Source: Eledone cirrhosa (taxonomy: Eukaryota). From it: a DNA stretch of 64,000 bases. The stretch lies in assembly GCA_964016885.1 (NCBI GenBank), contig OZ024742.1, positions 110,236,001 to 110,300,000 on the forward strand, given 5' to 3'. Under the pieces are notes generated by a model. That model searched no databases. It was not told the DNA's origin and was given only the letters and a program-made list of their open reading frames with translations. The translations under genes and the position numbers were made by a program. Of the stretch, positions 273-64,000 are shown in pieces; positions within the stretch are counted from its first letter, which is position 1, and each line of letters begins with the position of its first letter.

Positions 273-2924
273 TGCATTTATCTTGCTTTATGTTTATACG
301 AGTTATCACCAAGTCACAACCAGTGACCTCAAGAGACAACAAGGTCCGCCATGTTCAAGAAAGAACACACATATTCACACATGCATCCTTAGTGTTTAGA
401 CTTGTGATGTACGTATATTGACAGGATCTTCCTTAGTATATGGGCAGTTCCCATTAGTACTATCTTTTGTATTTCTCCTATACGCGGGTTTCCTGGGATT
501 TGCGATAAGTAGTCGTTAGACCCCTTAGGTATCATTCCCAGAGCGCCTACAACCACTGGTATTGTTTTAGTTCTCAATTTCCACATTTTTCCAATTTCTA
601 TCTCCAGGTCCTTATACTTGCTCAATTTTTCAAATGTTTTTATAGATACATTCTTGTCTATTGGAACAGACATATCAATTAGCAGGCATACCCTCCTTTG
701 AAAGTCCTTCAATATTATATCAGGTCTATTTGCATCTATTTTTCGGTCTGTTTGGATGCTAAAGTTCCACAAGATTGAGATGTGATCTTTTTCAAGTATG
801 GGAGGTGGTTGATGCTCCCACCAATTCTTTTGATGGGGCAGGTCAAAATGCTTACACATTATCCAATGTATGTATTGTGCAGCTCTGTCATGCCTGTTTA
901 GGTATTCGGTTGGAGCTATAGGACTGCACATTGAAATTATATGGTCAATGGTCTCTGGTTGTTTTTTGCATACACGGCATAATGGGCTGCACCCATTTTT
1001 TATTATGTTGGCTTGGTAATTTTTTGTTGGCAGACACTGATCTTGTGCGGAGATAATCAGTCCTTCAGTCTCCGATTTCAGTCCAGAGGATGCCAACCAC
1101 TGATGGGTTAAAGTTTTGTCAACATCAGGATTGTTAGCTCGCTCTGGGTATTTTCCATACAGAGGCTTTTCTTGCCATTTCTTAGCCAGTTTCTGTAGCA
1201 GTTCTTTCTTTGCAGTTACTTTTACCTGCTTTGCTTTTTCTGTGTTTTCCATTTCAGCAGTAAATGGGACTTCTGAAATTTGTAGTCCATTACTGTATCT
1301 TTGTGCATCTTTTGTAATGGAATATGATCTTTTGGTGCTTTCGTGTTTCAAAACGAGTTTGATCATCCAATCATGTGATTCCCTTAGATAGGTGGATAAT
1401 CCAATTGTTGCAGTTTTCAACGCAATGTCTAACTGGATTAACCCACGTCCTCCTTCTTTTCTAGGGAGATATATTCTATCTATGTCTGCCTTAGGGTGAT
1501 GCATTCTGTGCATGGTTAAGAATTTTCGGATTTTTGTATCGAGCCTACGGATCTCTGTGCTTGACCAGTTGATGACATTGTAACTGTAGGTTACTACTGG
1601 TATGGCAAGCGTGTTTATGGCATCGATCCTATTCCTTGCATTCAATTCCGTTCTTAAGATTGCTCTGACTCTGCGGTAACATTCCTTCCTTATCCTTTCC
1701 CTCATTGTCGAGTGCTTGATTCCGTCTCCTTCACAAACACCTAGATATTTGTAAGTTTGTTCTTGATCAAGCTCTCTTATCACGTTCCCCCGATCAAGAT
1801 TAATGTCTGAACTCTTCAGCAGCTTTCCTCTGGTGAACGTTGCTTTGGCGCATTTATCCAGTCCAAACTCCATTTTAATGTCATCACTGAACTGCTTCAC
1901 AGTGGATAATAGCCCTTGCAATTGTTCATCATTTTTTGCGAATAGTTTCAGGTCATCCATGTAGAACAGGTGATTAATGGTTTTGTCATAGACTCTATAT
2001 CCATGTTTTGTTTCATTGAGCATTTTACTTAATGGTATAAGTGCGATGCAGAATAAAAGCGGTGATAAAGAGTCACCCTGAAAAATTCCACAATTAATGT
2101 TAACTTCTCCAGCTTCCAGTGATTTTGTTTCACTATTCAAAAGGAGTGTCGTTCTCCATGTCCTCATACTGAATGACAAAAACCTCCTGACAACGGGGGA
2201 TATTTTGAAAATCTCTAAACATTTTTCAATCCAACTGTGTGGCAAACTATCAAATGCTTTTTTATAATCTATCCAAGCAATCGATAGATTTTTGTGTCTA
2301 TTATGACAATCTTCCAGTATCATTTTGTTAACCAGAAGCTGATCCTTACAGCCATATGAGCCTCGTTTACACCCTTTCTGCTCAATGGGAAATAGGTCAT
2401 TTGTTATCAGGTGGTCATATGTGTATTCAGTTAGGACTGATGTTAAAATTTTATACATTGTGGTCAAGCAGGTTATCGGTCTGTAATTTTTGGGATTGTT
2501 TGTCTCATCATTCTTCGGTAGCAGGAATGTAATGCCGTTAACTAGCCATGATGGTATCTTTTCTGGCTCCTTAACTATTTCATTGTAAAGTTGGGCCAAC
2601 AGCTCATGAGACTCTGTGAAGGCATTTATCCAAAAGTTTTGTATTTTGTCTTTTCCTGGGGATTTCCATTTGCTGGTTTTTCTTAGAGCCAAGCGCAGCT
2701 GTTCAACTGTTATATTTTCCCATGTTTGTTCTTCAAGGTGAGCTGTTTCTTTCATTTGTCTGTCTATCCATGGGGCATGTATGTTATGAACTTTTTCTTC
2801 GGCCCAGATCTTTTCCCAGAATTCTTGCACTTCCTCCTTGGGTGGTATTGATTTAGCAGTTATTGTTGACTTACCAATTTTTCTGTAGAAGTTTCTTTGG
2901 TTGTTTTTGAACATATTATTGTCC

Positions 2925-2926
<2 letters not shown>
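273..2926 (-). mobile_element. 5'-truncated Dong/R4-clade non-LTR retrotransposon inserted in (TAA)n
   Basis: Flanked by (ATT)n at 231-272 and 2927-2972. Contains an RT + RLE ORF and a ~115 nt 3' UTR. Confidence 0.9.
389..2926 (-). CDS. Reverse transcriptase + CCHC zinc knuckle + restriction-like endonuclease (R4/Dong); N-terminus missing
   Basis: Motifs NYRPITCL, GIFQGDSLSP, FYMDDLKL, CRVC..HIISMC, RHD, RPDI..IDMSVP..KLSKYKDL. No stops over ~845 codons. The poly-Ile N-terminus in the ORF track is microsatellite read-through. Confidence 0.92.
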
Positions 2927-2972
<46 letters not shown>

Positions 2973-3429
2973 GCCACATGCTGTTTACAAACGTACGACA
3001 CTTCATCTGCCAAAAGCTTATTGTTTTCCATCTGTGTGTAACACTTGTATTGTTGAAATTTTGTTCAATAATTTTCAATAAGTTGCAACACTATTTTTTG
3101 AGTGGGGCAACTTCAAATTTCCACCGCATTAGTATTTTCAAAAACAACATGGCGACGGGCTTTCATTATAGCTAAGTCTTGCACAAAAGTGATTTCCACC
3201 CTCTACCATATGTAAAGCAAAACATCTCCATCGCCACCTAAATCAAAATAGTCCACAGTAGCGCTAAAAACGTCACACAACGACATCATCAGCAACCCCA
3301 CCTCTTTATGTATTAGTTTTAGAGACTTTTCTGCAGAGAGAATGGAAATCTTGAGAGCAATTCCACTTGAATATGATCACAGGAAAACCGTGTCTGAGTA
3401 CACAGATTAAGTCAAAAAGAAAATGGTCT

Positions 3430-12889: not shown

Positions 12890-13047
12890 CGTTATTCCGG
12901 GTTGAATCGGAGGTAACCACAGTAAGTAAGGTACTCAATACATTGCAGAGTATAAAAGTTTTAATATAGATGAGATTCTACAGGACTAGAACTGATGATT
13001 TCTAAAGAATGAAACAGTTCTAGTCCTGTAGAATCTCATCTATATAA
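12890..13047. mobile_element. Family A element, fold-back; hammerhead core at 12992-13033 (+)
   Basis: CTGATGA-tttctaaagaat-GAAACAG-ttctagtc-CTGTA. The 5' strand of stem I is replaced by the inversion junction. Confidence 0.7.
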
Positions 13048-48701: not shown

Positions 48702-49299
48702 CCATCGTGTCTTCATAATAACGAATCATCGTCGCCATAGTCGATTTGCTTGGAGCGGTCGATTTTCATTGTTGTTGCTATTGTTGTTGTTCTTAATGTT
48801 ATTGTGGTTGTTGTTGTTGTTGTTGCTGTTGTTGTTGTTGTGGTTGTTTTTGTTGTTGTTATTGTTGCTATTGATGTAGTTGTTATTGTCATTGTTGTTA
48901 TTGTTAAAGTTGTTGTTGCTGTTTTTGTTATTGTTGTTGTTATTGTTGTTGTTGCTATTGTTGTGGTTGTTGTTGTTATTGTTGTTGTTGTTGTTATTGT
49001 TAACGTTGTTTCTGCTGTTGTTGTTGTTGTTATTGTTGTTGTTGTCATGGCTGTTATTGTTGTTGTTATTGTTGTTATTATTATTATTGACGAAAGTGGA
49101 TGTACGTTTTTTGAAGCTCCGTGAGTAAGCAATTTTTTGAGGATTAATTGTAGAGAATTGTTTATTTTTTGTACCGCTGAAGCATTATAAGACATTAATT
49201 TGTATCCTGTGAAGGAATAACTCATAATATTTGGGCCTTTTGGCCCAAATATTTGAACTTTATTTTGAAAAAAAATAATAATTTTTTTCTCAAAAAAAC

Positions 49300-51210
49300 A
49301 TGGCGGAGCCACGCCCCCTAGAGGCGGGTCTGCTGTCGTGCAACGGCGACTTGAGCGTTGAGAGGAGAGGTGAGGCGAGGAGCGCCACCAGCACGAATGT
49401 GAGCAGCGACAGTGCCAGCACCAACGGGCCGAGCGGCGCGGAAGGTGGTAACAGCGACAACACCAACACCAACAAGCCGAACAGCGCAGAAGGTGGTAAT
49501 AGCGAGAGCACCAACAAAACGAACAGCACAGAGAGTAATAGTAGCGACAGCAACAGCACCAACAAGGCCAACAGCACAGAGGGTAACCACGACACAGGGG
49601 AGAACAACAACAGCAATAGCAGCAGCAACACCAACAAGAACAACAACAGTGACAACACCAACAAGAACACCTTCGCTGCTGTGGCAGCGGCTAAAAGGAG
49701 ACCATGCTACAGCATCGACTTAACCAACAGAGAGGAAAAGTTGGCCCAGGCCTGGAAAATCATAAATCAAGAGCAGACCTGGGCAAACTTAACTGTCCCG
49801 GCAGAAGCCATTGAGGCAGTGGAAAAAAGAACGGTGCATTTCAGATGCATCTCAGTAGAGACAAAGAGGGCAGCGATAATCGCCCAAGCTGATATAGAAG
49901 CCGCACTGAAATACATCAGAGAGGACACAGACTTCATAGAGAGGGGCAGGCAATACGGCACCGTTTCGGTGCTGTTCAAGTCTGAAGCCCTCGCTGTGAA
50001 GCATTCAATGACCCCTTGCAAAACCAGCAAGGTTATAATGTACCCCTCCCACATGGGAAAACGAATAGCACGTGTGCGCATTCCCAGGATTCCACCAGGA
50101 CTTGATATGTGGTGGCTCCTGGGTTGCGTAATCGTGGAAGGAACGGATACAGTCCCGGTAGAGGCAACGAGAACTGCCAGGGACGACTGGTCCGGGGTTG
50201 ATCTGGAGATACTGCTCCAAATCAGACCCGAAAACGTAAAAGCAATCCCGGACCACATCCGCCTCCAAAACGGGAGGGTGTTGCATATAATGACTGAGGG
50301 CAAAAGGCCGCATTGTTTCCTTTGTGGGGAAACGACACACTTGCGAGCCTTCTGCCCTCAACTGCCGAAAAGCGCAAGGGGTCGAAAGATTCCACTGCTG
50401 GCGACGCCGGGACAAGGACCACCAGCAACACCATCAACAATGGAACCACCAAAATTGCACACCCAGGGGGGAAACGAGGAAAGCTCTCCCATTCCCCCTC
50501 CCCCCCAAAATACACACACGAACAAGAACATAAACACTCACTCAGACACAAACACGCTCACAGCCACAGACCCCTCATCCTCCAGCAGTGAAGATGAGGG
50601 AAAACCAAAGTCCCCCAAAATACAAAAAACAAAACACAAAAAAAAAAGAAATCCACAAAGCACAAACACCCCCACAAAATAAAATACACACACCACCCAC
50701 ACAAACATTTTCCCCACAGCATCACCAACACAACCACCAAAATCCCCCAAACGCAAACAAGCTAAACAGACACAAGAACAAATAGACACACAAACATCAG
50801 AAACTACAGACACCCCACCCACAACAAACGCAGACACAATAGAAACAACACTAACAAAGCTATCACCACCACAATCACACGAACAAATAAAACCCGAGCA
50901 ACAAAACATTAAAAACTTCGTGCTTGCCAGAAGGGCCAACAAGGAATTGATGGCCCATGTAGCACGAAGCACAAACATCGAAAAAGACGGGGAAACATTT
51001 GAAGCGAGCACATTTCGCGTACCAGATAATTTGCTTCTGATGCGAATGTCGCTCGCTTCATACAAAGAAATTCGAAAGAGCTTTCCTCGGGATGTGGGAA
51101 CCCCGAACGTAAAACCCACGTCAAGACTATTAAAGGGGTTCCCAAAAGAAACCCCACAAACCATGGAGGTCGAACCACCCGACCTTCACAAGACCCCGGA
51201 AGGTAAGTAA
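49300..51210 (+). CDS. ORF1 (gag-like, CCHC knuckle) with one in-frame TAA at 50680-50682
   Basis: CFLCGETTHLRAFC (CX2CX4HX4C). The frame stays open from 50683 to 51210 and joins the 50920 ORF. Confidence 0.85.
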
Positions 51211-51239
51211 ACCTTTCCTCTCCCATTCATCCTGCCAGC

Positions 51240-54200
51240 ATGGCCATAAGAGTAGGAAGTTTAAATGTTCGTGGCCTGGGGTCGCCCTGGAAGCAAGGTC
51301 ACTTGCTCAACGACCTCAGGTCACTAGGAATGGATGTAATTGCCATCAGCGAGACCAGAATTTCCGACACACGCGCACTGGCGCCGATTTTCGACGATTA
51401 TCAGATCTTTGCATCTGTTAGTCGGCCGGGAATGGGAGGTGGAGTGGCTGTGCTGTTTAGGAAATGTCTGGATCTCGAGGTAAGGTCAATCTTCCGGGAT
51501 CCTGACGGAAAGTTGGTGGTCCTGGACGTGAGCAATAGCGAAGGTGGTGCCTTTAGACTGGTGGCCGTCTACGCCCCTACTGGGGCCGGTCGGCTGGACT
51601 TCTTTAGGCGCCTGGAAAACTTTCTGCTTACGTCTCGCCCTTTACTGTTAATAGGGGATTGGAATGGCATCTTAGAAGCACGCTGGGATTGTGTGGGAGT
51701 ATCTGATAGGAGCGGGGGGTGCAAAAGCCTCAAGTACCTGATCAGCCAGTTTCAACTGTCTGACAGGTACCGACTAGATTTCCCTAATGCGCCAGTATGG
51801 ACCTGGACCAATCGCATAGGGTCATCTAGATCGTACATAGATAGGATTTTCATTAGGAAAAGAGATAGAAATAGTGTAGGATGTCCACATTTTAAAACGG
51901 TTGCCTATTCAGATCACAAGCTTGTGATCTGTATGGTCGACCTAGATAAGACACGTAGGTTAGGACCTAGCTACTGGAAGCTAAACATGTCGTTTCCGGC
52001 ACGTAAAGCTTACAGGGACCGGGTCAACAACTTAGTTAAGCAAAAGTTGACAGGGGGGGTTGTCAACAACAGGTGGTGGGGGGCACTCAAAAGAGAGATT
52101 AGAGCAACCTCGATAGGATTTAGCAAAGAAGTAGCAATAGAGAAAAATAGAAAGGAGGAGGGGCTGATAGCTAAGTTAGACGAGGCTATTTGTAGTGGCA
52201 TTGCAACAGACGTGCTAGCGGCGAGAATGGCACTAGACCATTTCTTCAATGCGAAACACGAAGGTTGCATTGTCAGAGCTAAGGCGCGTGCTCTGAGGAA
52301 CGAGGGAACCAAAGCTGCCCGATGGGCTCGCTTTGCAGAGACGCAGCGTGGAAATAAAACCACAATTCGGTCTTTGACGGATCGAGATGGACACGAACTG
52401 AGCGATTCCAAGCAGATGTGTGAGGCCTTTCGCCAGCACTTTGCTCGATTGTTCGGGAGGATGGGTGAGTCGGAGACGGCGGCGGACTTCAGTCCCTACC
52501 TCGACGGCTTGCCACGCCTCTCGACGGCCGACGCTGAGCGCTGCGAAGAGCCGATAACATCAGCCGAAATTCAGGACGCCCTTGTCGGCTGCTCGAGTCG
52601 CAAGTCACCCGGTTTGGATGGTCTGCCCTACGAGCTTTACGTAAATATGCCAGACTTGTTCTCCGATCTCCTCGAAGCGCTCTACTGCAACTGGCAGCAG
52701 AACGGGAGCATTCCCAGTTCTGTGAGCCGTGGCGTAGTGACGCTGATAAGGAAAGACGAGAACAAGAGGGACACACTAGATAATTTCAGGCCCATAACCC
52801 TGCTCAACACAGAGTTTAAGATTTTGGCCAAGGTGTTAGCGAAAAGGTTGGCGCTTGTCGTCAAAGATTTGGTTGGGGAGGCGCAAACTTGCGCAATCCC
52901 GACCAGGTCCATACACGACAACCTCCACCTCATGCGATACATCATAGAGAGGGTTGGGTGCAAACCTGGCTTCGGTGGGGCTCTGATCAATTTAGATCAA
53001 TCGAAAGCATTCGATAGGGTCGACCATCGGTACTTGGAGGCTGTCCTCGAGGCGGCTGGCTTCGGCCCCGTCTTCAGAAGCTGGATCGCTGCAATGTACA
53101 GCGGCATCCGCTCGGTGGTCAAAGTTAATGGCCACCTCTCGGAACCGTTTCAGATCTCTCGATCGGTCCGTCAAGGGTGCCCTCTCTCCTCACTTCTGTA
53201 CGTATTGACTCTTGAGCCTCTACTGCGGAAGCTGGAGTTGTTGCAGGGCATCCCGCTCGAACCGGGACGTAGAAAGGCTGCGTCCGCTTATGCGGACGAC
53301 ATCACCGTGATGGTGTCGGACACCTCGGAAATCGAGGTGATCCGCACCCATTTGGAGGAATATGAAAGGTTGACGGGAGCAAAACTTAACCCGGAAAAGT
53401 CGGTGGGCTTGCAGCTCGGCACCTGGAGAGGCAAGTCCATGCCGTCCAACAGCGTCGTTGGGCGCTGGACAGACGGACCGGTAAAGTTGCTCGGGGTTTG
53501 GTTCGGACCAGACCTCCAGGTGGATAAGAATTGGGACGAGGTGACGAGCAGGATAGCCAACCTCACCCAGAAATGGGCTGAGAGAAAGCTATCACTGAAA
53601 GGGCGGGCGGAGGTGGCGAACGCGTACATCGCGTCCGTCATCTACTACCGCCTGACCGTCGTGCCTTGCCCCCGTCCACGCCTCGCCAATTTGGAACGGC
53701 TCCTTTTCAAATTTTTGTGGAGGGGACGGGTCCCGTTGGTGAGGCGGTCCATCTGCTGCCAGCACCCTCTTCGTGGAGGGCTGGGCATGCCGTGGCTAAT
53801 GATGCGCAGACATGCGCTGAGGCTGCGACATCTCCAGATATTTTGCCTAAACGGTGAACAGGTGTGGTCGCCGTTTGTTAGACGGGCCTTTCCGCAGCTC
53901 ATCTCTTTGACTGAGCTGCAGTCCTGGGTCAAGAAGAGACCGAGACTGGGCGACTGGCATCTGGAATGTTGCCAGGCGCTCACTGCACTCTGCAAGGTGG
54001 GCAATGCGGTCAGTGGAACTTCCACTCAAGATTTCTATAGAGGATTAGTGGAGGGCAAGTGCGATGACGTACTAGGAGAGGCTCTGGGCGTCAACGAAGT
54101 AGAACTGACCAGTATGTTCCGGAGGACTTTCGAGCCGGGGACGATGGATAACTTCCAGAAATCCCTCGCTTGGCAGTGCTACCGGGGGGCGCTGCCGGTT

Positions 54201-54659
54201 CGGGATAAACTCTACAGGCACGGAAGTGCTGTCAGACGAACCTGCCCGAGATGCGCGCAGAGCGACGAAACCGTTCTGCACGCACTCGTCCAGTGTCCGT
54301 GCATTGCTGACTTGTGGGGTTATGTCGAACAGCTATTGTCGCGTGTAGAACGGATCCGGCTATCGTCCGAGTCCATAGTGAAGATTGACCCGCCGCCTTC
54401 TTTTGGTCAGGAAGGGCAGGCAATTTTCCTCTGCCTGGTGGCAGTAGCGAAAGAGGTTGCATGGTGGACCAGGTTGAAAGGACTGAAGACAGACACTTTT
54501 CTCTTCGGCCAATCCCTCATCAACTTCTTCAAGTTTCACTTGGAAAGGAAGGTGAGGGTGGAGAGAGAAGTGCTGCCCCCCAGTACATTTACTGAAAGGT
54601 GGGTGAATGTGGCGAGAATGGCCCGCGTGAGTGGGCCTACTCTGATCATGCGCCTGTAG
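51240..54659 (+). CDS. ORF2: APE endonuclease + reverse transcriptase + C-terminal zinc finger (1139 aa, intact)
   Basis: SLNVRGL, SET, GDWN, IDRIF, SDH; NFRPITLLN, DQSKAFDRV, RQGCPLS, AYADD; CPRC..ETVLHALVQC. Confidence 0.95.
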   Translation: MAIRVGSLNVRGLGSPWKQGHLLNDLRSLGMDVIAISETRISDTRALAPIFDDYQIFASVSRPGMGGGVAVLFRKCLDLEVRSIFRDPDGKLVVLDVSNSEGGAFRLVAVYAPTGAGRLDFFRRLENFLLTSRPLLLIGDWNGILEARWDCVGVSDRSGGCKSLKYLISQFQLSDRYRLDFPNAPVWTWTNRIGSSRSYIDRIFIRKRDRNSVGCPHFKTVAYSDHKLVICMVDLDKTRRLGPSYWKLNMSFPARKAYRDRVNNLVKQKLTGGVVNNRWWGALKREIRATSIGFSKEVAIEKNRKEEGLIAKLDEAICSGIATDVLAARMALDHFFNAKHEGCIVRAKARALRNEGTKAARWARFAETQRGNKTTIRSLTDRDGHELSDSKQMCEAFRQHFARLFGRMGESETAADFSPYLDGLPRLSTADAERCEEPITSAEIQDALVGCSSRKSPGLDGLPYELYVNMPDLFSDLLEALYCNWQQNGSIPSSVSRGVVTLIRKDENKRDTLDNFRPITLLNTEFKILAKVLAKRLALVVKDLVGEAQTCAIPTRSIHDNLHLMRYIIERVGCKPGFGGALINLDQSKAFDRVDHRYLEAVLEAAGFGPVFRSWIAAMYSGIRSVVKVNGHLSEPFQISRSVRQGCPLSSLLYVLTLEPLLRKLELLQGIPLEPGRRKAASAYADDITVMVSDTSEIEVIRTHLEEYERLTGAKLNPEKSVGLQLGTWRGKSMPSNSVVGRWTDGPVKLLGVWFGPDLQVDKNWDEVTSRIANLTQKWAERKLSLKGRAEVANAYIASVIYYRLTVVPCPRPRLANLERLLFKFLWRGRVPLVRRSICCQHPLRGGLGMPWLMMRRHALRLRHLQIFCLNGEQVWSPFVRRAFPQLISLTELQSWVKKRPRLGDWHLECCQALTALCKVGNAVSGTSTQDFYRGLVEGKCDDVLGEALGVNEVELTSMFRRTFEPGTMDNFQKSLAWQCYRGALPVRDKLYRHGSAVRRTCPRCAQSDETVLHALVQCPCIADLWGYVEQLLSRVERIRLSSESIVKIDPPPSFGQEGQAIFLCLVAVAKEVAWWTRLKGLKTDTFLFGQSLINFFKFHLERKVRVEREVLPPSTFTERWVNVARMARVSGPTLIMRL

Positions 54660-55722: not shown

Positions 55723-56444
55723 TGTTTACAAACACACCGAGCATTATAATAAATCTTTGGTGAACCCATACGTACATATATATATATATGTGTGCATGTA
55801 TGTATATATATATATACATACTACTGTACGTCTGTATACATATATGTATGTACGTATACATACTTATATTTAAGTAACAGCCGTACTAAGAGTGGGAAAT
55901 GAAATTTCGTTTCATTTTTTTCCGTTTATCGTGTTCGGTGCGCCCGGCCGATTAACTCACTCGATATGCAAATTAAGCTACTCAGCCGTTAATACGCATA
56001 AGGAAAGTATATACTTTCAGACGTTCAATCATCTGGCAGGAAGGTATACGTTGCTGACGATAGCTAATAAGCTTGAAACTAGTACAGCGTTCCTTTGTCA
56101 GGGTTGAACAAATGAACAACGATGGTTGCTAGACACTGTACGGCTTAATTCGGGATGTTTGTTTACAAACACACCGAGCATTATAATAGATGTTCGGTGA
56201 ATCCATACGTACATATATGTATATGTGTGCATGTATGTATATATATATACATACTACTGTACGTCTGTATACATATATGTATGTACGTATACATACATAT
56301 ATGTATATGTGTGCATGTATGTATATATATATACATACTACTGTACGTCTGTATACATATATGTATGTACGTATACATACTTATATTTAAGTAACAGCCG
56401 TACTAAGAGTGAGAAATGAAATTTCGTTTCATTTTTTCCGTTTA
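55723..56444 (+). mobile_element. Family E retrozyme-like partial tandem (437-bp unit, ~1.5 copies)
   Basis: TGTTTACAAACACACCGAGC at 55723 and 56160; single hammerhead; ends CCGTTTAT then (TA)n. Confidence 0.8.
56048..56090 (+). ncRNA. Minimal type-I hammerhead ribozyme
   Basis: acgttg-CTGACGA-t-agct-aata-agct-t-GAAA-CTAG-TA-cagcgt. Confidence 0.8.
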
Positions 56445-56723
56445 TATATATATACGATAAATTAACGGAGCCATAGACTCTCGTTATTCGCTGTCAATAA
56501 TGTGCTCAAAGGAAAAGGTATCCTGAGCTCTTTAAAATACAATATGTTGAAAAGGTAACACACTAGAGAGAGATAGTGCGCCATCAACAAAACAGGGAAA
56601 AACCACCAGTGTATGGAATCTATAACATATGAAGGCAGGGTAGACACAATAATTAAATATATATATTAAAATGTATATACGCACCTCTATAACTATATAA
56701 CACACGCGTACAAAACCATATGT

Positions 56724-56777
<54 letters not shown>

Positions 56778-56781
<4 letters not shown>

Positions 56782-57639
56782 TAAAGTTGGTCCTTCATCA
56801 GTGATCTTCCAACCATCATCGGTATTTCTTCGCTTTAAAGACCATATACCCCCGGTTGGTGCGAGCAACGGCTAAAGAAAGTCGTTGGGACACGTAAATA
56901 AAGGGAACAGCGAGAGTGTAAACAAACAAAGATGGTAAAGCAACGAAAAGTGAGGAAGAACGAGTCAAGTCCCAAATTTCCATGAATATAAGTTCGGTGA
57001 AATCGTGAACGAGAGAGAATAAAGACCATCAAACCTGGTTGAAATGTGAGCAAGGAAGGAATTCCGCACAGGTCAAACGGGAGGAAGAAGGAGTCTAGTC
57101 TGTGAATTCGGTGAACATAAGTTCTGTGAAATCGTAGACGAGAGAGAGAAAAAAAGGGAACCGGCCTGGCCAAGCGTGCGAAAGAAAAGAATTACGCACA
57201 GGTCAAACGGGAAGAAGGAGGAGGAGGAGAGGTAGTAACAGAGAGTGAGTGAGTGAAGGGTGAGGAAGAGGCTAACAGAGAGAGTAACTGTTAGAGAGGG
57301 TAAAGATACAGAGAAAGAGGAAGCAGTAAGAACGAAATAGACGGGTCACAGCGGGGGAAAAATATATGTGTAAATATGAGAATAAACGTGCTGCGTGGTT
57401 GCAAATGGGTTACATATGAATAAAGTTGATCCTTCATCAGTGATCTTCCAACCATCATTGGTATTTCTTCGCTTTAAAGACCATATACCTCAGGTTGGTG
57501 CGAGCAACGGCTAAAGAAAGTCGTTGGGACACGTAAATAAAGGGAACAGCGAGAGTGTAAACAAACGAAGATGGTAAAGCAACGAAAAGTGAGGAAGAAC
57601 GAGTCAAGTCCCATATTTCCATGAATATTTCGGTGAAAT
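56778..57639 (-). mobile_element. Family F partial tandem (639-bp unit, ~1.35 copies)
   Basis: ~220-bp direct repeat at 56778 and 57417; homologous to 37941-38540; TA-flanked. Confidence 0.75.
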
Positions 57640-59151: not shown

Positions 59152-59735
59152 CATAAACGGAAAAAATGAAATTTCATTTCTCACTCATAGTACGGCTGAT
59201 ACTTAAATATAAGTATGTATACGTACATACAAATATGTATACAGACGTACAGTAGTATGTATATACATACATACATGCACACATATATATATGTACGTAT
59301 GGGTTTACCGAACATTTATTATAATGTTCGCCTTGTTTGTAAACAAACAGCCCGCATTAAGCCGTACAGAGTTCGGCAACCATCGTCGCACTTTTGTTCA
59401 ACACTGACAAAGGAACGATGTACTAGTTTCAAGCTTACTAACTATCGGCAGCATCGTATATCTTCCTGTCAGAGGATTGATGCTGACGATAGCTAATAAG
59501 CTTGAAACTAGTACATCGTTCCTTTGTCAGTGTTGAACAAAAGGGCAACGATGGTTGCCGAACTCTGTACGGCTTAATGCGGGCTGTTTGTTTACAAACA
59601 AGCCGAACATTATAATAAATGTTCGGTAAACCCATACGTACATATATATATGTGTGCATGTATATACATACTACTGTACGTCTGTATACATATATGTATG
59701 TACGTATACATACTTATATTTAAGTATCAGCCGTG
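59152..59735. mobile_element. Family E fold-back pair; hammerheads at 59478-59518 (+, intact) and 59415-59457 (-, core CTGCCGA)
   Basis: Long inverted arms on either side of ~59470. Confidence 0.8.
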
Positions 59736-63320: not shown

Positions 63321-63750
63321 TGAACGTCTGAAAGTATATACTTTCCTTATGCATATTAACGGCCGAGCAGCCTAATTTGGATATCGAGTGAGTTTAGTCG
63401 GCCGTGCGCACCGATATGCAAATTAGGCTGCTTAGCTGTTAATATGCATAAGGAAAGTATATACTTTCAGACGTTCAACCATCTGGCAGGAAGGTATACG
63501 ATGCTGATGATAGCTAATAAGCTTGAAACTAGTACATCGTTTCTGTGTCAGTGTTGAACAAAAAGGTGATCTGGTTGCCTAAACACTGTACGGCGTAATT
63601 CGGGCTGTTTGTTTGTTTACAAACAAACCGAGCATTATAATAAATGTTCGGTAAACCGATACGTGCATATATATATGTGTGCATGTATGTATATATATAC
63701 ATACTACTCTACGTCTGTATACATATATGTATGTACGTATACATACTTAT
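63318..63750 (+). mobile_element. Family E element with inverted 5' arm; hammerhead at 63498-63540
   Basis: acgatg-CTGATGA-tagctaataagctt-GAAA-CTAG-TA-catcgt. Confidence 0.8.
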
Positions 63751-64000
63751 ATATATATATATATGTATATATACATACATATATATATACAAATATGTAT
63801 ATAAATACGTATGTACATATAATATATAAATATATATGTAGATATATATGTATATATATATGTGTGCGCGTGTGTGTATATAAGACATTCAGATTATATT
63901 TTTTCTAAATTATTTTAATTTTTTTATTTTTGAATCTTTTTTTAAAAGTTATTATACAGATATGTATAAACGTTTCTATGTAAGTATGTATATGCAGGTT

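Follow-up and report, generated by a model that had tools for sequence, protein, structure and literature searches.

A very abundant ORF-less hammerhead repeat of Eledone cirrhosa with Penelope-type insertion anatomy and a probably circular RNA template

We analyzed a 64-kb stretch of Eledone cirrhosa DNA (hereafter the window), in which insertions of one short repeat were found at three places (Table 1). The focal insertion, 55723-56445, consists of the 3' part of a unit (207 bp) joined directly to a whole unit, as an earlier note on this sequence had described. The joint is indeed seamless, with CCGTTTAT ending at 55929 and CGTGTTCGG beginning directly at 55930, and the second CCGTTTAT ends at 56445, after which (AT)n follows. 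Alignment of 55723-55929 with 56160-56445 revealed 5 substitutions, three indels of 1 to 2 nt, and one large gap, the latter because of an 84-bp duplication in the TA-rich part. The unit size given in the earlier note, 437 bp, holds for the start-to-start spacing, but it leaves this duplication unmentioned, and the end-to-end length is 516 bp (432 bp without the duplication). The 3' end that the focal copy was said to share with a copy near 59152 was found there, on the minus strand at 59153-59160. GC content is 33% for the whole focal insertion and 36% for the family unit, the longest frame of which has 63 aa. No target-site duplication was discernible at the (TA)n flanks of the focal copy. 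Just downstream of the focal insertion lies a 218-nt direct repeat (56772-56989 and 57411-57628, 97% identity, 639 bp apart), which is another partial-tandem element. By eye, the open frames at 51207-54659 (+, 1150 aa) and 49282-50682 (+, 466 aa) are like a non-LTR endonuclease/RT plus ORF1, and the 891-aa frame at 389-3064 (-) resembles a non-LTR RT with a C-terminal endonuclease.

Table 1. Coordinates of repeat-family features in the window (u, position on the unit ruler)
Feature	Position	Strand	Remarks
Partial second round (u230-433), 207 bp	55723-55929	+	5' end adjoins TA-rich microsatellite
Whole unit, 516 bp including 84-bp internal duplication (432 net)	55930-56445	+	without long ORF
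Type I hammerhead motif	56039-56093	+	stem I 56049-56053/56085-56089, extension 56039-56042/56090-56093
Hammerhead core, CUGACGA and GAAA	56054-56060 and 56075-56078	+	stem II closed by U.U mismatch
Hammerhead stem III, 2 bp in palindrome ACUAGU		+	predicted cut after GUA at 56084
Two copies of TA/TG-rich segment of about 84 nt	56205-56372	+	local duplication in focal copy
Start site B (ACTTATAT), second preferred 3' end of the family	56379-56386	+	read through here, also at 55862-55869
59-nt "tail" between sites B and A	56387-56445	+	hairpin 56413-56430; ends at site A (CCGTTTAT), then (AT)n
Second insertion, A-ended arm (u95-433)	59153-59480	-	ribozyme core mutated
Partner arm of second insertion, head-to-head (u122-389 followed by rearranged TA-rich sequence)	59481-59734	+	core intact
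Third insertion, short inverted arm	63321-63414	-	irregular end (about u97)
Third insertion, B-ended arm (u32-374)	63412-63752	+	intact ribozyme at 63504; runs into (AT)n

The hammerhead reported earlier for the focal copy is intact: one type I motif is present with all core bases, and the predicted cut falls at 56084^56085. Its helices appeared in the predicted fold of the whole unit, and when the unit was folded as a circle (z -7.5, a value exaggerated by self-complementarity within the TA-rich part), the ribozyme was likewise present, spanning the joint. The isolated 71-nt motif was no more stable than its shuffles (z -0.46). Among the 150 of 240 Rfam matches listed, there was no hammerhead family, only below-threshold miRNA-type matches to TA repeats. 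Since the motif alone is not unusually stable and no Rfam hammerhead was listed, the ribozyme call rests on anatomy and variation. With a loose pattern, other hammerhead-like motifs, belonging to several families, were seen in the window at 12992+, 24176-, 24271+, 26770-, 32061-, 34110+, 34534+, 41379-, 58623-, 60423-, 60847+, 61490-, 61866+, and 63077-, three pairs of which are head-to-head (24176/24271, 60423/60847, and 61490/61866).

Genome-wide, the 31-nt ribozyme core was matched exactly 10,573 times and 34,633 times with at most 2 mismatches in the 3.0-Gb, microsatellite-rich host genome, while the reversed-pattern control gave 0 matches, indicating that the motif is not due to chance. 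The unit closes on itself, with 3,281 exact read-through junctions compared to 3,083 exact A ends (that is, ends at CCGTTTAT) running into ATATAT. Unit length is 432 to 437 bp in the focal copy, in agreement with the size range of non-LTR retrozymes (about 150 to 450 bp), so that the label proposed in the earlier note fits; it is 406 to 435 bp in arrays and reaches about 510 bp in older subfamilies. This ORF-less hammerhead repeat is a new, very abundant non-LTR retrozyme family, on which our literature search found nothing.

Sampling was confined to the first 100 places listed, which all lie on contig C1, and is biased to young copies. The 172 loci fetched represent 150 distinct ones with 235 segments, most of them short; 8 loci were left out as hand-found duplicates, 14 as the same place, and L173 because its anchor was unmapped. 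Segments wholly inside the TA-rich part were also left out, and B arms (arms ending at site B) under about 110 nt are therefore invisible. At least two ribozymes in tandem were found at 25 of the 150 loci and at 11/78 ribozyme-picked loci. Two long arrays contain 10 and at least 21 ribozymes, and their units are heterogeneous, with 0 to 26 differences between units in about 320 sites. The arrays L203 (G000:C1:49583000-49592900; L143 is the same place) and L062 each show a two-unit higher-order repeat of their own (420+422 bp), and in L203 every second ribozyme carries a changed base beside stem II. A heterodimer template common to L062 and L203 was rejected, as their units do not match.

A sister retrozyme family was recognized at L269 and at L245:5495-5660, the latter having been pursued as a lead to a partner element before it turned out to be a sister retrozyme. 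Its 465-nt unit is about 66% alike over half the unit and presents site B, tail hairpin, site A, and ribozyme in matching order; the core is kept, and stem II is different and fully paired. The sister family gave 4,999 pattern matches genome-wide, many in long arrays. Both families keep the motif ATGCAAAT, located just downstream of site A at 55965-55976 of the window, which we take to be octamer-like and which may act as a promoter element or belong to a hairpin. In copies of the main family picked without regard to the ribozyme, variation at core positions was 1.5%, compared to 4.3% (median 2.2%) elsewhere, in a pooled set missing some minus-strand arms. The stem I pair 56051:56087 was U-G in 121, A-U in 31, and G-U in 27 of the 188 copies listed, a set from which some minus-strand arms had been dropped at de-duplication. 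Judging from this change on both sides of stem I, and from a sister family with the same core and another stem II, the ribozyme looks to be under selection.

The 3' ends of the family fall mostly on two sites, A and B, 59 nt apart. At the 150 loci, part of which were picked by end A, we counted 126 A ends, 78 B ends, and 27 others, and 0 ends lay within 5 nt of the cut. The ribozyme-picked sample alone (n = 115) gave 51 A, 47 B, and 17 others, and (TA)4 directly followed the 3' end in 83/115. Priming at the RNA 3' end, as the earlier note had it, does not agree with these positions: copying started instead inside the unit, at a position either 220 or 279 nt downstream of the cut, and what was taken for the unit start is therefore simply the base after site A and no RNA end. 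Two 3' end sites, mostly leading into (TA)n, are the signature of the Penelope "tail," shown by Frangieh et al. to span the interval from one internal RT start site to the other (PMC11167929) and described in the literature on Penelope-like elements (PLEs) as often being present at one end only (PMC8557442). Partial tandems, an inverted 5' copy, a tail at one end, and a microsatellite target were all seen in the family, and no terminal repeats distinct from the unit were found in the mapped family loci. From this insertion anatomy, we infer mobilization by a PLE.

Elements combining an RT with a C-terminal GIY-YIG domain are abundant in the genome (10,597 first-look candidates, frames of 844 to 1096 aa). 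In 50 GIY-YIG loci (150 scored of the 10,597 candidates), no PLE had an end in common with the unit, and the unit matched these loci only through stretches of 16 to 33 nt and embedded family copies. The abundance of such elements, one family of which also has (TA)n-ended, 97% identical copies, would suit the reading that the repeats are 5'-truncated ends (pseudo-LTRs) of an ORF-bearing PLE, and Xenopus retrozymes match PLE pLTRs according to a preprint (bioRxiv 10.64898/2026.07.22.740005). This reading, which the earlier note had named as one of its refuters, is nevertheless hardly credible here. Indeed, the unit is closed on itself by the 3,281 junctions set beside 3,083 A ends, the 5' ends are evenly spread, and across 204 family loci no PLE frame abuts the unit (a PLE protein match was present in only 8; segments were mapped in 7 of these, and in none did the match lie at a unit boundary). 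The unit has no RT or GIY-YIG ORF, and no PLE protein match was found in the window. An ancestral origin of the retrozyme from a pLTR is possible. Among the PLEs, we observed a young family (L235, L236, L240, L243, L244, and L246) with 97% protein identity and frames up to 938 aa. PLEs of the L235 type have a 3' UTR of over 1.2 kb, a (TA)n end, and, close to that end, what may be a variant ribozyme, and L246 ends about 65 to 75 nt earlier than its relatives, perhaps with a tail of its own.

Reverse transcription through the cleavage site, proposed for the focal copy, was borne out family-wide. Among A arms chosen irrespective of the ribozyme, 56/85 reach the cut, 55 of which pass while 1 stops within 5 nt (1.6 expected); a second cut is passed by 10/11 and a third by 2/2. 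More than one unit is covered by 37/85 A arms, and more than two by 5. The partner B arms behave similarly: 34/37 reach the cut and 0 stop there. Overall, 2 stops occurred in 103 encounters with the cut, which is no excess. Deletions across the cut numbered at most 1 per position in about 122 passes, the joint is without indel scars, and the 5' ends are evenly spread (128 ends, 2 to 9 per 20-nt bin, in a pooled set lacking some minus-strand arms). Passage of the cut without excess stops or joint scars makes a cleaved linear monomer, with or without jumps, an unlikely template, and the read-through in 55/56 A arms and 34/34 B arms agrees with the earlier note on this point. Template jumping does occur in other retroelement RTs, and an enzyme that, on reaching the 5' end of a linear cleaved monomer, switches to the 3' end of that monomer or of a different one would produce longer-than-unit copies and occasional mixed rounds. 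We consider this very improbable, as it is largely refuted already by the lack of a 5'-end excess at the cut (2/103), by the absence of joint scars, and by rounds that have a common haplotype (see below).

The inverted arms follow a strict rule. Out of 72 head-to-head insertions, 54 pair an A arm with a B arm, 0 are A+A, and 0 are B+B; in the others, one end is irregular (15) or the insertion is truncated by the boundary of the locus (3). When sampling did not depend on the end, A+B pairs accounted for 24/31 head-to-head insertions and like pairs for 0. Seven two-armed loci of the sister family, found by a query spanning such a junction, have A+B-type pairing as well. The A arm extends past site B in 31/37 pairs, and 21/54 A+B pairs consist of arms neither of which is contained in its partner, so that fold-back copying is excluded. 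If the tandem and inverted shapes had been made at the DNA level after a monomer-length insertion, through slippage, unequal exchange, or fold-back, the higher-order repeats of L203 and L062 and the 84-bp duplication in the focal copy would be accounted for; such an origin is, however, extremely doubtful for the family, in which 37/85 A arms are longer than one unit and their 5' ends are dispersed, containment is lacking in the 21/54 pairs, and the ends are fixed at two sites. In L1 twin priming, two target ends prime on one RNA to give head-to-head arms; unlike in L1, the second site is fixed here and the arms overlap in sequence. No published count of A+B pairing, or use of it for a retrozyme, was found in our search, outside of which most subscription papers lay.

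In 16 loci with both comparisons, round-to-round divergence was 138/3072 and arm-to-arm divergence 151/3583 (P = 0.63; rho 0.76 per locus). Since the divergence between rounds equals and tracks that between arms, the rounds were alike at insertion. At polymorphic sites, rounds differed in 9%, arms in 7%, and unrelated loci in 43%, and rare alleles were common to both arms at 13 of 6,702 sites, compared to 80 of 1,014,627 between loci. These values suggest that both arms of an insertion were made from one template, or from one source. No arm junction recurred among the 72 head-to-head insertions and no host 5' flank was common to any of 88 lone segments, indicating that short copies are not re-copied as linear transcripts. 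Four multi-round copies (L103, L173, L178, and L188) have clearly unlike rounds, for which one circle is therefore insufficient without template switching. At least 2 round-to-round differences were common to 21/2628 locus pairs, with at most 5, in a set without some minus-strand arms; a permutation null gave 89 versus the 21 observed and was set aside as probably ill-calibrated.

Could the focal copy by itself have told the nature of the template? According to the earlier note, its 1.5-mer suggests a circle and is expected from a ligated circle or a multimeric transcript; this shape is usual for Penelope-type insertions, and the focal copy alone cannot separate a circle from a multimer. Considering the family, we infer a circular RNA template. 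With a probability of roughly 0.6, a PLE-like RT/endonuclease copied a ligated RNA circle of the ORF-less, approximately 430-bp hammerhead repeat into (TA)n; the ribozyme is kept and there are no stops at its cut, for which cleavage followed by ligation is the simplest account. Circular RNAs have been demonstrated for retrozymes from coral, mussel, and axolotl (PMC7229834), and the model itself was put forward in 2014 and 2020 (PMC4209133, PMC7229834). Other work counts against a circle. In vitro, unprocessed RNA was the dominant template of an anole PLE, insertion persisted when the ribozyme was mutated, and read ends were absent from the ribozyme site (PMC11167929); of 9 Xenopus retrozyme dimers, 8 failed to cleave in vitro (bioRxiv 10.64898/2026.07.22.740005); and according to Craig et al., hammerheads are possibly mere parasites of PLEs (PMC8557442).

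The same Penelope-type enzyme might alternatively have copied an uncleaved linear multimer from a young homogeneous array, the ribozyme cutting late, rarely, or being otherwise used. Read-through, two internal start sites, and like rounds are equally predicted by such a template, unprocessed RNA is favored by the anole PLE (PMC11167929), and the arrays of 10 and 21 or more units, the 11/78 ribozyme-picked loci with tandem ribozymes, and the mixed-round copies are all present. We nevertheless regard it as rather unlikely. Sources with identical units would be needed, yet the long arrays seen are heterogeneous or have DNA-level higher-order repeats; no locus pair has a large common set of differences (21/2628 share at least 2, at most 5); copied 5' flanks or arm junctions are absent; and the retention of the ribozyme would be left unexplained.

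For the circular template, we propose the following sequence of events. Arrays with at least two ribozymes would be transcribed, and the transcripts would cleave themselves, probably with the palindromic stem III pairing two ribozymes into a dimer; a host ligase would close the monomers into circles. At a (TA)n target, a PLE protein dimer would then nick each strand, with priming at A from one of the ends and at B from the other. Each polymerase would circle the template until it dissociates, and the ends of the two cDNAs would be joined head to head. More tentatively, one circle may be copied twice at once, with the dimer assigning A and B per target strand and the polymerases displacing each other's product. 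The focal copy would represent one A-primed run of about 1.5 rounds without a recognizable B arm and is a dead-end product; with its single ribozyme, it cannot release a unit-length monomer. A faint inverted match upstream of 55723 was considered as a hidden short B arm and is not claimed, because the motif occurred upstream of 3/37 lone arms versus 2/37 in the control. If the dual-copying proposal is true, the A+B pairing, the common haplotype, and the scar-free passage of the cut would be, in thousands of copies, a genomic record of it, and one mechanism would unite tail, inverted arm, partial tandem, and hammerhead. The mechanism of tandem and inverted PLE insertions and the role of the hammerhead are stated as open in PMC8557442 and PMC11167929.

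The element type and the idea of a circle are already published, and the added value lies in the family-wide read-through without stops and the strict A+B pairing. The family offers a protein-free, 430-nt substrate that is present in tens of thousands of copies and has two mapped starts and a one-of-each arm rule, which makes the question of circle versus precursor testable by counting and in vitro. Furthermore, it ties a retrozyme to the PLE machinery through insertion anatomy and not through co-occurrence.

Our findings are in good agreement with the metazoan non-LTR retrozymes, which, according to Cervera & de la Pena 2020 (PMC7229834), are likewise short (150 to 450 bp), low in GC, non-coding, and tandem, with PLEs in the same genome. 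Similarly to the coral, mussel, and axolotl Rtz_353 retrozymes, our unit has a type I hammerhead and a strongly self-paired predicted circle in which the ribozyme is free to fold. Its 2-bp helix III and the U.U mismatch at the base of helix II are as in HHR_Amex2 of the axolotl, a ribozyme with better cleavage in dimeric form (PMC7229834). Unlike those retrozymes, this family is known from sequence and consists mostly of dispersed 0.5- to 2-mers rather than long arrays; its fixed 3' ends and paired inverted arms have no counterpart described in the part of PMC7229834 that we covered. Partial tandems, an adjacent inverted, 5'-truncated copy, a one-end tail, two internal RT starts, AT-rich or (TA)n targets, and a hammerhead are shared with insertions of endonuclease-positive PLEs (Craig et al. 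2021, PMC8557442; Poseidon PAc, Frangieh et al. 2024, PMC11167929). In contrast to these PLEs, the family has no RT/GIY-YIG ORF, its tail is 59 nt instead of 30 to 40 nt, and its hammerhead is canonical instead of minimal. Both of its start sites precede (AT)n matching their TTAT ends, whereas the PAc start is non-homologous to the target (PMC11167929). Finally, the family is comparable to Chlamys MRC1 in being non-autonomous, probably PLE-mobilized, and inserted as multicopy head-to-tail units. According to PMC8557442, non-autonomous Chlamys elements of the MRC1 type generally share 3' sequence with an autonomous family, unlike here, where no partner match was found in the GIY-YIG loci screened, and most Chlamys lack a hammerhead, whereas this family keeps its ribozyme.
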